Shown piece after piece: positions 2,229-8,883 of a stretch of DNA of 10,192 nucleotides. This DNA is from a virus. The translations under genes and the position numbers were made by a program. The notes under the pieces were generated by a model, which had not been told where the DNA came from, searched no databases, and saw only the letters and a list, made by a program, of their open reading frames with translations. The stretch's first letter is position 1, and each line of letters begins with the position of its first letter. The stretch lies in the UHGV virus genome UHGV-0119409; one strand, given 5' to 3'.

Positions 2229-3030
2229 CCCACACCCCTTCTATCCAGTCAGTGTTATTCCAGTCAAGCTCATCGCTTTTCCCGGCATTTTTTGATTTTC
2301 CCCTGATATGATTTACGTGCCTGGCGAATTTTTGTTCCCACTGAACCTGCGTGAACACTTTGCCCTCAGCCATCCAGTAATCCCGGAATGCAGCAAGTTC
2401 AGCAGGTGTAAATTCCGGTTCCGGCAGGGCCGTTCCCCACAGCGCAGCACGCCGCCGAAAATCTGGCGACGGTAGCCAGCCATCTGTCATCGGAAATTTC
2501 CCGATGGGTTCACTCAGGCCATCCAGAAATTCAGGTTCTGCCACCTGCAACGGCGTACTGTTCGCTTCACTGGTCGGAGCACCCTCGCGCACGTGCGCTA
2601 TGTGTGGGGTTTTATATATATCTTCCTCTTCCTCTTCCTCTGGTAACTCCTTTTGTAACGCTGTTGGCGTTACTTTTTGCGTTACTCGTTTTCGATGCTC
2701 TGCCACTCTTCTATTCGTAAGTGCACGTTTTTTCGATGATTCTCCATTATGTCGCTCAAAGTTTGGAAGAATTAGTTTGCCGTCATGATAAGCAAGCCAT
2801 CCGACGCTAATGAGGGCGTCAGCAAATCCTGTAATAAAAGCGAGTCTATCAAGCACTCCTTTTGTAACGCTGCCAGCGTTACCGTCTATTGTTTGCTGGT
2901 CAGCCCATGCCCATATACGAACCAGCTTTCCAAGAACAGCATCTGGATCAATACCCAGAATTTCTGCTATCTGAAAAATTTCAGGTTTATCAGGAGTGAT
3001 AACTTCAACCTTAATCCAGCTGCTTGCCAT
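2200..3030 (-). CDS. Replication initiator, O-like (276 aa from ATG at 3030; a GTG at 3048 is the alternative start)
   Basis: Sits directly upstream of and overlapping the P-like gene. ATG at 3030 has GAGGGG 6-7 nt upstream. The protein has an N-terminal domain, an acidic EEEEEED linker and a C-terminal domain, and the iteron-like DNA repeats sit in the linker-coding region as in lambda O. Confidence 0.65.
   Translation of the reverse strand: MASSWIKVEVITPDKPEIFQIAEILGIDPDAVLGKLVRIWAWADQQTIDGNAGSVTKGVLDRLAFITGFADALISVGWLAYHDGKLILPNFERHNGESSKKRALTNRRVAEHRKRVTQKVTPTALQKELPEEEEEEDIYKTPHIAHVREGAPTSEANSTPLQVAEPEFLDGLSEPIGKFPMTDGWLPSPDFRRRAALWGTALPEPEFTPAELAAFRDYWMAEGKVFTQVQWEQKFARHVNHIRGKSKNAGKSDELDWNNTDWIEGVWDEINSRTSQ
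2611..2685. other. Candidate origin of replication: AT-rich tract, (TCTTCC)3 and dyad half-sites at ~12-bp spacing
   Basis: ttatatata (2612-2620), then (tcttcc)x3 (2621-2638), then half-sites gtaacgc at 2655-2661 and gcgttac at 2667-2673 and 2679-2685 (12-bp spacing; partial gtaac at 2644). The 19-bp dyad gtaacgctgttggcgttac lies at 2655-2673. All inside the linker-coding part of the O-like gene. Confidence 0.5.
2857..2882. repeat. Second copy of the 17-bp repeat ctccttttgtaacgctg plus a 19-bp perfect dyad
   Basis: Exact 17-bp repeat of 2647-2663 followed by gtaacgctgccagcgttac (9-bp arms). It is read in a different codon phase from copy 1, so the conservation is at the DNA level. Confidence 0.5.
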
Positions 3031-3223
3031 AGGTTTCCCCTCTTGCACTCTTTAGTGCACAAGCAAATTCATTACGATGGCGGTTGGCGCTATTCATTGC
3101 ACATTCAACACATGTTCCGTTCAGAACATACCTTTCAGAGAGATGGCCGTGACGGCACCGCTTTCCTGTGAAATAGCGATTTAACCCGGCTTTTGCGGCC
3201 TCCATTCTGGTTACTATCTTCAA
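3011..3223 (-). CDS. Small Cys/His-containing protein, possible zinc-binding regulator (70 aa; TTG start at 3223 or ATG at 3205)
   Basis: ORF between the cro-like and O-like genes in operon orientation. Motif ...KRCRHGH...NGTCVEC... suggests a metal-binding knuckle. Start codon uncertain. Overlaps the O-like gene start by about 20 nt. Confidence 0.45.
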   Translation of the reverse strand: MKIVTRMEAAKAGLNRYFTGKRCRHGHLSERYVLNGTCVECAMNSANRHRNEFACALKSARGETYGKQLD

Positions 3224-3326
3224 TTTTTCCGCCCCTTTTTGTTATTGATATTGGCTATTTTGCACAATTGGAAAATTTGATCAACCAGATTTGGTTTTTT
3301 ATTACCTTTGAGGTACGAATAGATAT

Positions 3327-3756: not shown

Positions 3757-4341
3757 ATGAAAAGTATCCAGGACGTCCGCAGGCAAAATCTCAACGACTT
3801 GATCGACCGTGAATTCAATGGTGTTCAGACGCGGATGGCAGAAAAACTTGGAACTCAGGCAAATCTGGTAAACCGCTGGGCTCTTGGCAAGAAGGTTATC
3901 GGCGACCAGGTTGCGCGAAAAATTGAAGCTGCCGCCAATAAACCACGTAACTGGCTTGATATCGATCGCTCGCTTTCTCAGGAAGGTTTTCAGCCTGTCG
4001 GCCCGAGCGATATAGGTCAGCTGGCGGCTCACAACCTGGAACGCTGGATGAGCGAAAGCCGCGACCTTTCAACACAGGGAAAACTTCACCGCGCATCCGG
4101 CGTCGCCCAGGTGACAATCAGCCGCCTGTTAAACAATGAGGTCAGCGTTTCCATTTCCACCCTGGAGAATGTTGCATCCGCATTCGGGCGTCACGGATAT
4201 GAACTACTGATTCACCCGCACGACCCTGCGACTATCAACTATGACCGCTCACGCTACGCATTGTTACCCGAAACCGAGAAAGCAAAGATCGAAAGTTACA
4301 TTGAATTTGTCATCAACCAGAACGAAAAAAGCAAACAATAA
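3757..4341 (+). CDS. Prophage repressor, CI-like by position, without a recognisable LexA/S24 autocleavage domain (194 aa)
   Basis: Divergent from the cro-like gene and followed by a terminator. Two HTH-like segments (...QTRMAEKLGTQANLVNRW... and ...ASGVAQVTISRLLNN...). No Ala-Gly cleavage site or Ser...Lys dyad pattern seen. Confidence 0.6.
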   Translation: MKSIQDVRRQNLNDLIDREFNGVQTRMAEKLGTQANLVNRWALGKKVIGDQVARKIEAAANKPRNWLDIDRSLSQEGFQPVGPSDIGQLAAHNLERWMSESRDLSTQGKLHRASGVAQVTISRLLNNEVSVSISTLENVASAFGRHGYELLIHPHDPATINYDRSRYALLPETEKAKIESYIEFVINQNEKSKQ

Positions 4342-4362
4342 AACTATATTTTTCAGTAAGTA

Positions 4363-4386
4363 AGCCGCCTCATGGCGGCTTTTTTA
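4363..4386 (+). terminator. Rho-independent terminator after the repressor gene
   Basis: agccgcc-tcat-ggcggct hairpin (4363-4380) followed by tttttt (4381-4386). Confidence 0.75.
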
Positions 4387-4398
4387 TTGCCAGATAGA

Positions 4399-4475
4399 TT
4401 ACCTTACGGGTAATTTTTTTAACTCATATCTATTGACACCAAACCAAATAAGCATAATTATTACCTCAACGGTAA
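4399..4475 (+). promoter_or_regulatory. pL-like early promoter flanked by two operator palindromes
   Basis: ttaccttacgggtaa (4399-4413), 19 bp, TTGACA (4433-4438), 16-17 bp, taatta (4455-4460), ttacctcaacggtaa (4461-4475), then GAGG and ATG at 4495. Confidence 0.7.
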
Positions 4476-4494
4476 CAGACCGAGGTAACAAGTT

Positions 4495-4647
4495 ATGCAG
4501 TGGAAAATCATCAACGGTTGGTACTGCGTTACTGCATGCGGATTCATGAGCTGGAAGTTCCGCACCTTACAGGAAGGCATTAAGTGGGCTTTCGTCAGCA
4601 AAGAAGCTCGCGATGTAGCCAACGATAACGAGATATGGGAGGGCTGA
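4495..4647 (+). CDS. Small Trp-rich protein (50 aa), first gene of the rightward early operon
   Basis: ATG at 4495 with GAGG 9 nt upstream. Translation MQWKIINGWYCVTACGFMSWKFRTLQEGIKWAFVSKEARDVANDNEIWEG. Stop TGA at 4645-4647 is 2 nt from the next start. Not in the supplied ORF track (below its length cutoff). Confidence 0.4.
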   Translation: MQWKIINGWYCVTACGFMSWKFRTLQEGIKWAFVSKEARDVANDNEIWEG

Positions 4648-4649
4648 TA

Positions 4650-4949
4650 ATGAACGTTAATCAGCAGAAAAATCTTCAAAAAATCATGCTGGCATTCGAC
4701 AAGGACTACCGCCTGTCAGAACAGCTATATGACCGACAAGTTGAACTGATTGAGAGCATCCGACTTCATCAACTGTCCTCAACTTTCGACGTTGTAACAG
4801 GCAAAGGCGTTCGTCAGGAAGTGCTGGAGGCTGCTAAAGACAGCCCTGAGTTCGAAGAACTGATAGATTCCTACCGGCGCGAGGCAATGGCAATTATCGC
4901 CCGCTGGGATCTGGCGGATCGGATTGATGGGCAGAGGGAAGCGGCATGA
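4650..4949 (+). CDS. Hypothetical protein (99 aa) immediately upstream of the exo/RecT pair
   Basis: ATG at 4650 with GGGAGGG 6 nt upstream (preferred over the in-frame ATG at 4635). Stop overlaps the next gene's start (ATGATG). Confidence 0.6.
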   Translation: MNVNQQKNLQKIMLAFDKDYRLSEQLYDRQVELIESIRLHQLSSTFDVVTGKGVRQEVLEAAKDSPEFEELIDSYRREAMAIIARWDLADRIDGQREAA

Positions 4950-5845
4950 TGCAGAACGCTGGAATCATGGATAGAACAAAATACATCGGAGGAAGCGATG
5001 TTGCAGGGATTCTTGGAATTAGCCCATGGCGCACCCCGCTTGAGGTTTATCTGGATAAGGTCCAGCCACGTGTCAAACCAGTAGACCCAAGCAAGCAGAA
5101 AGTTTTCACGCGTGGCCAGCGTATGGAGCCATACGTAATAGACCTGCTTTCTGAGGAAACAGGGATGGAAATCGTTCATCGCGGAAACCGCTATATCCAC
5201 CGTGATTACGATTTTATTGCAGCTGAGATCGATGCAGAAGCAGCGTCAGGCGAGAACATTGAGATCAAAACAGTTAGTCCGTTCAAAGCCAAAGAATGGG
5301 GAGAAATCCAGACAGATGCAATTCCTGTGCATTACACGGCCCAGGCCATGCACGGGTTGATGGTTACAAACAAACAGGTATGCGTTTTCGGTGTGCTTAT
5401 CGGTGGCGACGACTTCCGAATCTATCGGGTTGAGCGTGATGAAGAAACTATCCAGGCGATCTTAGAAAAAGAAATCGCTTTCTGGGACCGAGTGAAAAAT
5501 CTTAACCCGCCGGAAGCTACCAGCGTAAGCGATGTATCGCTGATGTTTGAGAAAGATGCCGGGACAAGTATCGAGGCTGACGGAAAGGCACTCGCACTAT
5601 TCAACGATCTACGAGACATGAAGTCACGCAGAAAATCACTGGAAGAAGAAATAGCTATATCAGAAGAGAAGCTGAAGATGTACATGCAAGAGCACTCAGT
5701 CCTGACCCTGGACGGAAAGCCGCTCTGCACATGGAAATCTCAGATCAGCAACAGATTCGACCAGAAGCTATTCCAGTCAGTACACCCTGAGTTATTCGAA
5801 AAATTCAAAACAACAACGACACAACGCGTCTTCAGAATGAAGTAA
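4946..5845 (+). CDS. YqaJ-like recombination exonuclease (PD-(D/E)XK) with a C-terminal extension of about 100 aa (299 aa)
   Basis: N-terminal ...IGGSDVAGILGISPWRTPLEVY..., then ...QRMEPYV..., ...DAEAASGENIEIKT..., ...YTAQAMHG... fit the YqaJ/lambda-Exo-type nuclease motif order. Immediately upstream of RecT. Confidence 0.75.
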   Translation: MMQNAGIMDRTKYIGGSDVAGILGISPWRTPLEVYLDKVQPRVKPVDPSKQKVFTRGQRMEPYVIDLLSEETGMEIVHRGNRYIHRDYDFIAAEIDAEAASGENIEIKTVSPFKAKEWGEIQTDAIPVHYTAQAMHGLMVTNKQVCVFGVLIGGDDFRIYRVERDEETIQAILEKEIAFWDRVKNLNPPEATSVSDVSLMFEKDAGTSIEADGKALALFNDLRDMKSRRKSLEEEIAISEEKLKMYMQEHSVLTLDGKPLCTWKSQISNRFDQKLFQSVHPELFEKFKTTTTQRVFRMK

Positions 5846-5854
5846 GGAGAAAAA

Positions 5855-6877
5855 ATGTCTATCAATGCACTTAAGGCAGCGGCTACCGGTAACCAAGTTG
5901 CACATCATAATGAGAAACCAACAACTCTGGCCGGACTTCTGGCAGACCCAAAAATTAAAGCTCAGATGGCTTTGGCACTTCCAAAGCACATGACAGCAGA
6001 CCGTCTGGCGCGCATAGCAACCACAGAGATCCGAAAGGTTCCAAAACTTGCATCATGCGACCAAGCCAGCTTCCTGGGGGCAATTATGCAATGTGCCCAA
6101 TTGGGTCTTGAACCAGGAGGAGCTCTTGGACACGCTTACCTGATACCGTTCGACAAACGCCAGAAAGTAAATGGAAGATGGGAAACCGTATCTACAGAAG
6201 CACAGCTGATTATCGGCTATCGCGGAATGATTGACCTTGCCCGCCGCTCTGGGCAGATCCTGAGTATCTCGGCTCGTACCGTACATACAAACGACAAATT
6301 CAGCTACTCATACGGCCTGGAAGAAACGCTCGAGCATTTACCTTGCGAAACAGGTGACCGCGGAGAATTAACGCACGTTTACGCCGTTGCACGACTGAAA
6401 GATGGCGGAGTCCAATTTGAAGTTATGAGCCGGGCAGACATTGAGAAAGTTCGTGCACTGAGCAAAGCCGGTAGCAGTGGCCCATGGGTTGATCACTTCG
6501 ATGAGATGGCTAAAAAAACAGTAATTCGCCGACTATTCAAATATCTTCCTGTTTCTATTGAAATGCAGAAGGCTGTTGTTATGGATGAGCGCGCTGAAGC
6601 TGGACTTAGCCAAGATAACGCAGCTGTTATCACTGGTGAATATTCCGTAGTTGACGATGAGCGTCAACACCTGTCGCCAATTTCAGATTCAGAACGAGAA
6701 GAAGCTCGAGAATATATCATCGCGATACTTAATAGCCTGGATCCATCTGCTGAAGATGCAAAAACGATGTTCAAGCGCGCTGAAAATGAGATTAACACCA
6801 TGGCTGAAAAGCTCGGTGATGAATATCACCAAAAATTCATGATGACGCTTAACGATATGCGTCCAGAATTCGAGTAA
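5855..6877 (+). CDS. recT: RecT-family single-strand annealing recombinase (340 aa)
   Basis: AAGGAG 6 nt upstream of ATG at 5855. Sequence character (...GHAYLIPF..., ...IIGYRGMIDLARRSG...) and pairing with a YqaJ-type exonuclease match RecT/Redbeta-type SSAPs as I recall them. Confidence 0.8.
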   Translation: MSINALKAAATGNQVAHHNEKPTTLAGLLADPKIKAQMALALPKHMTADRLARIATTEIRKVPKLASCDQASFLGAIMQCAQLGLEPGGALGHAYLIPFDKRQKVNGRWETVSTEAQLIIGYRGMIDLARRSGQILSISARTVHTNDKFSYSYGLEETLEHLPCETGDRGELTHVYAVARLKDGGVQFEVMSRADIEKVRALSKAGSSGPWVDHFDEMAKKTVIRRLFKYLPVSIEMQKAVVMDERAEAGLSQDNAAVITGEYSVVDDERQHLSPISDSEREEAREYIIAILNSLDPSAEDAKTMFKRAENEINTMAEKLGDEYHQKFMMTLNDMRPEFE

Positions 6878-7584: not shown

Positions 7585-8227
7585 GAAATACACACTAATC
7601 TATGCAGATCCACCCTGGGTATACCGGGACAAAGCCGCAGATGGTAATCGCGGTGCCGGTTTTAAATATCCGGTTATGAGTGTGCTGGATATCTGCCGCC
7701 TTCCTGTGTGGGATTTGGCCGATGAAAACTGTCTGTTGGCCATGTGGTGGGTGCCAACACAACCACTCGAAGCACTAAAAGTTGTTGAAGCCTGGGGATT
7801 CCGTCTGATGACGATGAAGGGCTTCACGTGGATAAAATGTGGTAGTCGACAACCAGATAAACTGGTTATGGGTATGGGACACATGACTCGCGCCAATAGT
7901 GAAGATTGCCTGTTTGCAGTAAAGGGAAAACTACCTCCACGCATTAATGCAGGGATCGTTCAGTCATTTACCGCACCGCGGCTTGAGCATTCAAGAAAAC
8001 CAGATGTCGTTCGTGAAAAACTTGTGCAATTGTTAGGCGATGTTTCTCGCATTGAACTGTTCGCCCGCCAGACGTCTCATGGCTTCGATGTTTGGGGTAA
8101 TCAGTGCGAAGACCCGGCAGTGCAACTACACCCTGGATACGCGTTGGATATTGGCGGATTAACAAATGCATTCAGCAATGCTCCGGTGTCACCAATAGAC
8201 AACCAGGGGCGGGAGCGTGCAGCATGA
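7577..8227 (+). CDS. MT-A70-family DNA N6-adenine methyltransferase, orphan (216 aa)
   Basis: N-terminal ...[10 protein letters not shown]... with the DPPW catalytic motif, and overall size typical of phage MT-A70-like methylases. No adjacent restriction endonuclease candidate. Confidence 0.75.
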
Positions 8228-8883
8228 ACCTATATCAACGCATCAATGGCGCTGACTGGTGCAATATCTTCGTCGTCGGCGATCTGCATGGGTGCTACAC
8301 GCTGCTGATGAACGAACTCGACAAAGTTTCATTCGACCCGGCGCGCGATTTACTTATTTCCGTTGGTGACCTTGTTGACCGCGGCGCTGAAAACGTCGAA
8401 TGCCTGGATTTGATTACTATGCCGTGGTTCCGAGCTGTTCGTGGCAACCATGAGCAGATGATGCTGGATGCACTGGTCAACGGCGGAAGTTTCGGACATT
8501 GGATGTCAAACGGCGGTGGATGGTGGCACCAACTTGATTCTGAGCAGGATGTGCAACTCAAATACCTTCTGCCAAAGATTACCAACCTCCCGATGATTAT
8601 CGAACTGGTTACCGGCAATAAGAAGGTCGTCATCTGTCACGCAGACTACCCGCACAACGAATACGCATTCGATAAGCCAGTACCAGAAGAAATGGTGATA
8701 TGGAATCGTGAGCGGGTTAGCGACGCGCAGGACGGTATTGTCTCGGAGATAACCGGTGCCGATTTGTTCATCTTCGGTCATACGCCAGCACATCACCCAC
8801 TGGTGTATGCAAACCAGATGTACATCGACACCGGCGCAGTGTTCTGCGGAAATCTGACGCTTACCAAAGTCCAGGAAGGATAG
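8224..8883 (+). CDS. Ser/Thr protein phosphatase, lambda-PPase / PrpA-like metallophosphoesterase (219 aa)
   Basis: Motifs GDLHG, GDLVDRG and GNHE in canonical order. ATG at 8224 overlaps the methyltransferase stop (ATGA). The track ORF 8104-8883 includes an in-frame non-coding extension. Confidence 0.85.

Follow-up and report, generated by a model that had tools for sequence, protein, structure and literature searches.

The stretch of DNA analysed here (the window; 10,192 nucleotides of virus genome UHGV-0119409) comes, judged from its sequence, from an epsilon15/phiV10-type (Uetakevirus-like) prophage next to guaA and contains its immunity genes and early-left operon. Positions 4340-5000 are 100% identical to the chromosome of E. 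coli APEC O1, where the copy is a prophage with its integration site beside guaA. With these 661 bp as query, similar DNA is found in 559 of 5426 complete E. coli genomes. The order of genes in the window is matched gene for gene by the early region of phage phiV10 (genus Uetakevirus, epsilon15 group). A leftward set comprises replication genes, a small gene in the cII position and a cro-like gene; the rightward set is made up of a two-HTH repressor, two small ORFs (ORF-A and ORF-B hereafter), an exonuclease, RecT, an AlpA-type excisionase or regulator, PerC, an MT-A70 methylase and a Ser/Thr phosphatase. The window closes at the right with a minus-strand gene for a P4-type integrase. The repressor gene (3757-4341, plus strand; Pfam HTH_3 and HTH_26), equivalent to the putative repressor gp40 of phiV10, points toward the early-left operon as lambda cI does. 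The recombination genes, also on the plus strand, encode a YqaJ-type 5'-3' exonuclease of the lambda-Exo/RecE-like kind (4946-5845; Pfam YqaJ, PF09588, E 3e-23; phrog_434) and a RecT single-strand annealing protein (5855-6877; Pfam RecT, E 3e-57; phrog_148).

Two other genes of the window deserve mention. The lambda-type Ser/Thr protein phosphatase gene (8224-8883) sits between the MT-A70 methylase and the integrase, at a place where phiV10 has a DUF1382 gene; in the relatives L087 and L094-L097 a phosphatase homologue is found on the opposite side, beside the cII-position gene. The product of the latter gene (3011-3223, minus strand; 70 aa) has no family match in Pfam or NCBIfam, and its Cys/His pattern, C-x-H-G-H ... 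C-x-x-C, suggests a small zinc-binding protein.

The repressor gene is followed by a terminator-like hairpin with a T-run (4362-4381, plus strand), at the same place as an annotated terminator in phiV10. Further on lies a sigma-70-type, pL-like promoter-like site (TTGACA-17-AATTAT; 4433-4461, plus strand) with 10 of 12 consensus matches, flanked on both sides by perfect TTACC-N5-GGTAA palindromes that resemble operators: TTACCTTACGGGTAA at 4399-4413, upstream of the -35 element, and TTACCTCAACGGTAA at 4461-4475, overlapping the -10/+1 region. The intergenic region between the repressor and cro genes has three copies of this motif, and the whole window has 10, as against 2.9 expected, a number that none of 200 shuffles reached. 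ORF-A, ORF-B, the YqaJ exonuclease gene and recT all lie on one strand downstream of the promoter-like site; 2 nt separate ORF-A from ORF-B, and the ORF-B stop codon overlaps the exonuclease start at ATGA. We infer the position of the pL-like promoter from the operators and the gene order. Given the hairpin, the promoter-like site, the palindromes and the enrichment of the motif, the preliminary description of ORF-A and ORF-B as the first two genes of a pL-like operon upstream of exo-RecT is sound, and the positional logic by which it placed them in the kil/gam slot of lambdoid phages holds. An inverted repeat at 4458-4491 was considered as a minus-strand terminator, but is better explained by operator half-sites around the promoter's -10 element. 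Perfect or near-perfect copies of the palindrome also occur outside the immunity region, at 1338-1352, 1400-1414 and 3302-3316. The first two lie just upstream of a minus-strand DUF1064 gene (ATG at 1334), whose Shine-Dalgarno sequence is overlapped by one of the pair (TTACCTCGGAGGTAA); the repressor may thus act at a third site, within the replication/nin-like region.

The two small genes proved to have the coordinates and sizes first assigned to them (a Trp-rich protein of 50 aa and one of 99 aa, within 4495-4949), and PHROG matches, homologues and dN/dS confirm them as real. ORF-A (4495-4647, plus strand; phiV10 gp39, epsilon15 gp37) is the first gene of the operon, with a GAGG Shine-Dalgarno sequence 9 nt upstream, and encodes MQWKIINGWYCVTACGFMSWKFRTLQEGIKWAFVSKEARDVANDNEIWEG, in which 5 residues (10%) are Trp. 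It matches phrog_898 end to end (E 2e-38). ORF-B (4650-4949, plus strand; phiV10 gp38, epsilon15 gp36) encodes an acidic helical protein that matches phrog_856 end to end (E 2e-54). Its start is the ATG at 4650 in RefSeq and 4635 in a mechanical ORF list (104 aa); M1 and N2 are invariant in the family alignment, in agreement with the 4650 start. Each ORF has dozens of homologues. Median dN/dS values of 0.04-0.07 for ORF-A indicate strong purifying selection, and synonymous codon variants abound within its invariant N-terminus; for ORF-B the median is 0.26, again indicative of purifying selection. We found no functional work on either gene in the literature when searching by accession number and phage name. 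RefSeq annotation of ORF-A is uneven: under the 661-bp match many complete E. coli genomes list one "hypothetical protein" and others two.

By homologues and selection pattern, ORF-A is a genuine protein-coding gene, confined to the epsilon15/phiV10-type phage group. Its family alignment displays a nearly invariant, Trp-rich core of 35 residues, MQWKIINGWYCVTACGLMSWKFRTL-EAI-WAF, followed by a variable tail, and this core is kept in phages of E. coli, Salmonella, Klebsiella, Enterobacter and Citrobacter. The gene was found in 36 phage records, from phages of the first four of these hosts, and the four records that were opened are all classified as Uetakevirus. In more than 120 related loci it directly follows the repressor gene and is always first; its linkage is to the immunity end of the operon. 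Across loci, its identity (64-84%) exceeds that of the neighbouring repressor (44-64%), so that ORF-A is not specific to an immunity type, and what it recognises is probably conserved. The pattern suggests binding to such a target, which is probably one of the host.

Searches with ORF-A detected no relatives in Pfam, NCBIfam or the PDB, nor in PHROGs beyond its own family. Small proteins encoded near the start of early-left operons beside the repressor gene, namely Kil of lambda and P22, Rac KilR, lambda cIII, Rac YdaF and Qin YdfA (47-73 aa), invite comparison. The absence of any resemblance to Kil, remarked on from the start, was borne out: hhalign gave at most 1% for Kil, KilR, cIII and C3 of lambda, P22 and Rac, and a search of 20 family members against Pfam at E 10 returned neither Kil (PF06301) nor cIII (PF02061). 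YdaF shares with ORF-A an 11-residue KF(R/K)T..(G/A)..W motif, but comparison with 23 sequences of the DUF1391 family (Rac YdaF/Qin YdfA) gave 0.3% by hhalign, with the motif alone aligned. No similarity to N or Ral was detected by hhalign. Weak Pfam matches to DUF2985 and Phage_zn_bind_5 touched at most 3 of 20 members, and PDB matches to "bagel" and mucolipin entries are short Trp-rich chance similarities. The AF2 model of ORF-A, built on a shallow alignment, has a pLDDT of 54 and is too poor for a fold search.

One could envision that ORF-A is a host-takeover peptide of the Kil or cIII type without sequence kinship to those already known, for instance one that inhibits cell division or a protease of the host. 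The division inhibitors Kil, KilR, DicB and gp0.4 are small early proteins that are themselves mutually unrelated. Small size, a place at the head of a repressor-controlled early-left operon, a core nearly invariant over phages of five enterobacterial genera and better conserved than the repressor, and the very low dN/dS all agree with such a role. Yet the case is a purely positional one, set against the negative profile comparisons above, and we hold the idea tentatively, as somewhat doubtful. That ORF-A might act on the phage itself, for example by regulating early transcription or translation or by assisting some conserved protein of the phage as a cofactor, seems unlikely. It does occupy the first slot after pL, where lambdoid phages have the regulator N, and is basic (family median pI 8.75) and confined to Uetakevirus-type genomes; against this, it has no arginine-rich motif, no HTH or RHH signature and no family match, and its conservation is independent of immunity type.

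The surroundings of ORF-B are of a different kind. In 125 distinct related viral loci the order is repressor, ORF-A, none to two inserted genes, ORF-B, occasionally a gene of 75-90 aa, exonuclease and RecT. In all 125, ORF-B stands ahead of the recombinase genes, with an exonuclease of either the YqaJ or the DUF3799/RecE-like type. The latter is a 273-aa PD-(D/E)XK nuclease unrelated to YqaJ, and each exonuclease has its own RecT type. The matches of the window to most sequenced Uetakevirus phages stop exactly at the ORF-B stop codon (query 610-613; window 4946-4952), beyond which these phages carry the DUF3799/RecE-like exonuclease and a different RecT in place of the window's YqaJ and RecT; in phiV10 the annotation is of a single RecE-RecT fusion ORF. 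The ORF-B/exonuclease junction is therefore a mosaic breakpoint between alternative recombinase cassettes. The most distant member of the ORF-B family, P0099, is encoded directly upstream of a RecT gene (L169), another (P0084) upstream of a YqaJ gene, and in a contig that is not epsilon15-like and is devoid of ORF-A (L083) ORF-B still precedes DUF3799 and RecT. From these contexts it follows that ORF-B travels with recombinase modules and is indifferent to the type of exonuclease or RecT. The family is a narrow one: a profile search run exhaustively over 1.84 billion cluster representatives returned only 32 relatives, all from this same family and none annotated, and "hypothetical" is the label of ORF-B everywhere.

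Profile comparisons and an intermediate sequence indicate that ORF-B is, very probably, a highly diverged remote homologue of lambda Gam (PF06064). When its profile was compared by hhalign with 31 early-left-operon proteins of lambda, P22 and Rac, Gam scored 17.9% and all others 1% or less. Profile-profile comparison with 26 bona fide Gam sequences raised the value to 88.3% (E 2.9e-6), with residues 32-87 of ORF-B co-linear with GamS 33-90, and the use of 97 ORF-B sequences gave 89.1% (E 2.3e-6, score 37.3), statistics that are less reliable than usual in view of the low diversity of the alignments (Neff 1.7-3). The reversed Gam alignment, as a control, gave 7.9% (score 20.7), and the best of 30 column-shuffled alignments 1.1% (score 15.3). 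Reciprocal HMM-to-sequence searches gave 22-24 bits both ways. Among 14 family members scanned against the whole of Pfam, PF06064 had the best E-value, 0.0042, and was touched by one of the 14; in the PHROG-wide scan one of 14 orthologues reached phrog_259, "gam-like host nuclease inhibitor" (0.016), the only weak PHROG match with a function that fits the context. When the profile was searched against the whole PDB, the best match within a single stretch was to the Gam chains 5mbv and 2uuz (E 0.07), ranked below repeat proteins only, none of which had a significant stretch. The clearest evidence for homology appears to us to be a transitive chain. P0085, which fills the ORF-B slot in another guaA-integrated epsilon15-like prophage, is 43% identical to ORF-B over all 99 residues, ungapped (E 9e-27), and 41% identical over 58 residues to the Gam of Citrobacter koseri, P0216 (40.4 bits; E 8e-11 as a single comparison, or about 1.7e-5 by our own estimate after allowing for 97 x 26 pairs).

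ORF-B itself has no Pfam match, PF06064 included, and no NCBIfam match even at E 10, and it fails the curated Gam models, phrog_259 among them; a direct comparison with PDB sequences likewise yielded no usable match. Direct BLASTP against the Gam P0216 is not significant (E 0.19), which is why no resemblance was visible by eye in the preliminary description; that statement stands for pairwise comparison, not for profiles or for P0085. Likewise, of the proposal there that ORF-B is a non-homologous anti-RecBCD factor, the second half survives as the best-supported reading, whereas "non-homologous" does not. Structure prediction and a structural-similarity search were proposed at the same time: the AF2 model of ORF-B is all-helical, with one long N-terminal helix (residues 3-45, pLDDT about 65-75), but its overall pLDDT is 66, the alignment being shallow, and three fold searches returned generic coiled coils and helical hairpins and no Gam. 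Other early proteins were examined as relatives. P22 Abc2 (0.7% by hhalign), P22 Arf (1.0%) and Rac RacC (outside the best ten, at most 0.5%) were rejected, as were Abc1, Ea10 and Ral in the 31-protein comparison (at most 1%). A BLAST off-diagonal hint of an internal duplication in ORF-B came to 0.5% and was rejected.

The likeness to Gam (GamS, PF06064; PDB 2UUZ, 5MBV) is uneven along the protein. The C-terminal halves of the two families align at 92.7% (E 4e-7), the N-terminal halves at 0.3%, and the Gam-like stretch is limited to residues about 31-88 of ORF-B, including the motif G...DD-x-EF(Q/E)E...I(A/I)R. The two proteins also agree in size (99 aa for ORF-B; GamS, which is residues 41-138 of Gam, has 98 (PMC5218532)), in an all-helical prediction and in acidity (pI 4.86 for ORF-B, with a family median of 4.71 and net charge -6; 4.80 and -10 for GamS). 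Both genes lie immediately upstream of annealase and exonuclease genes in a repressor-controlled early-left operon. They differ in that the identity of ORF-B to Gam is below what Pfam, NCBIfam and PHROG need for placement, and in that its N-terminal 30 residues or so, which in Gam form the RecB-channel helix, are unrelated in sequence. ORF-B has no longer isoform of the GamL type; its partners are a YqaJ or RecE-like exonuclease and RecT, those of lambda Gam being Exo and Bet, and the gene order is gam-exo-recT as against gam-bet-exo in lambda. We think ORF-B is best read as an unannotated member or subfamily of the Gam family and not as a new kind of system.

If so, the regulatory sequence would run as follows. 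As the repressor leaves the TTACC-N5-GGTAA operators, the pL-like promoter at about 4433 would transcribe ORF-A, ORF-B, the YqaJ exonuclease and RecT, the last three of which would constitute a complete Red-like "gam-exo-annealase" module. An acidic, helical ORF-B dimer would occupy the DNA-end-binding site of the host's RecBCD, as solved for Gam, and the block would protect linear phage DNA, as well as the ends made by the phage exonuclease, and hand recombination over to exo/RecT. In the solved complex of RecBCD with Gam, the dimer body lies over the RecB arm that binds duplex DNA, to which it presents acidic residues that mimic phosphates; the channel for 3'-ssDNA is occupied by one N-terminal helix, which serves chiefly as a steric obstacle (PMC5218532). 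Gam also lowers the ciprofloxacin MIC about 4-fold (PMC5218532). Since the Gam-like signal is confined to residues 31-88 or thereabouts, ORF-B retains the region that corresponds to this body, and its N-terminal sequence, predicted as a long helix, differs from that of Gam. Dimerisation, the RecBCD target and a role of the N-terminal helix as a plug are presumed by analogy. That near-identical ORF-B proteins (95%) precede exonucleases of two unrelated families, YqaJ and DUF3799, and different RecT types argues for a target in the host and not for a cofactor specific to a phage partner. On homology and genomic context together, ORF-B probably inhibits RecBCD, and we have a similar degree of confidence in the reading as a whole, that is, an epsilon15/phiV10-type prophage with a pL-like operon in which ORF-B is the diverged Gam of a Red-like module.

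The same presumed aim, to neutralise RecBCD or to hijack it for the phage recombinase, is served by the small early proteins Abc2/Abc1 of P22 and gp5.9 of T7, neither of which has any sequence relationship to ORF-B. The abc genes of P22, moreover, lie downstream of erf, whereas ORF-B is upstream of the recombinase genes, and the mechanisms differ, in that Abc2 is reported to modify RecBCD and not to block it (PMC9836394).

The N-terminal divergence raises the question of whether the target of the protein has changed. ORF-B could be a descendant of Gam in which the unrelated N-terminal helix aims the acidic dimer scaffold at some other host machine that binds DNA ends, for instance SbcCD or a defence nuclease, instead of RecBCD or besides it. 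The absence of Gam similarity from the first 30 residues or so, next to a similar C-terminal domain, would fit such a history, as would the clear separation of the family from canonical Gam, given that no member does better than E 0.0042 for PF06064. However, it is the duplex-mimicking body that makes the most extensive contacts in the solved complex, with the helix acting mainly as a steric plug (PMC5218532), so that the helix could drift in sequence with the target kept; furthermore, in its position and its coupling to exo/RecT the gene is exactly like gam. We judge retargeting distinctly unlikely. A bolder reading in two separate parts, namely that ORF-A is a new, sequence-orphan, host-directed early protein (for instance an inhibitor of division, of a protease or of a defence system) whose core binds a target present throughout the Enterobacteriaceae, and that ORF-B is a Gam scaffold in which the replaced N-terminal helix changes or widens the range of targets, is possible while falling well short of probable. 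Finally, it is very improbable that ORF-B assists the phage's own recombinase by acting on exo/RecT, as Arf does for Erf in P22, and resembles Gam through a helical or compositional artefact: the gene does always adjoin those of exo/RecT, often with translational coupling, but its indifference to exonuclease and RecT type, the negligible score against Arf, the reversed and shuffled controls, which exclude a purely compositional match, and the BLAST bridge to a real Gam at 41% identity all speak against it.

With ORF-B taken as a diverged Gam, a gene labelled "hypothetical" in about one in ten complete E. coli genomes would most probably encode a RecBCD inhibitor, and the epsilon15/phiV10-type phages of Salmonella, Klebsiella, Enterobacter and Citrobacter all carry a gene of this type. 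As a Gam, ORF-B would complete a Red-like gam-exo-recT module and widen the known sequence space of the family. It may be of use in recombineering toolkits and is of relevance to defence systems that sense the inhibition of RecBCD or are blocked by Gam; the dealings of Gam with Kiwa and OLD are the subject of published papers. For the question of which parts of Gam are essential, ORF-B is a natural counterpart to compare, since the body is conserved and the plug helix is not. ORF-A, for its part, is a well-defined and strongly conserved small orphan that would be cheap to test experimentally.

Both junctions of ORF-B, with ORF-A and with the exonuclease gene, are insertion hot spots in related loci (L086:3034-3993, L085:2880-3065, L102:4288-4515, L123:4282-4554). 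Between ORF-A and ORF-B the inserts encode a 61-aa protein and/or one of 310-355 aa with a highly charged Glu/Arg/Ala coiled-coil centre; between ORF-B and the exonuclease the insert encodes a protein of 75-90 aa with an LRDYFAAKAMQ motif. No Pfam match was obtained for any of the three. In one related locus, an IMG/VR contig, the RecT gene (L103:5091-6002) contains a poly-Gly run that stems from a run of G in the DNA and is probably an artefact of assembly or masking.
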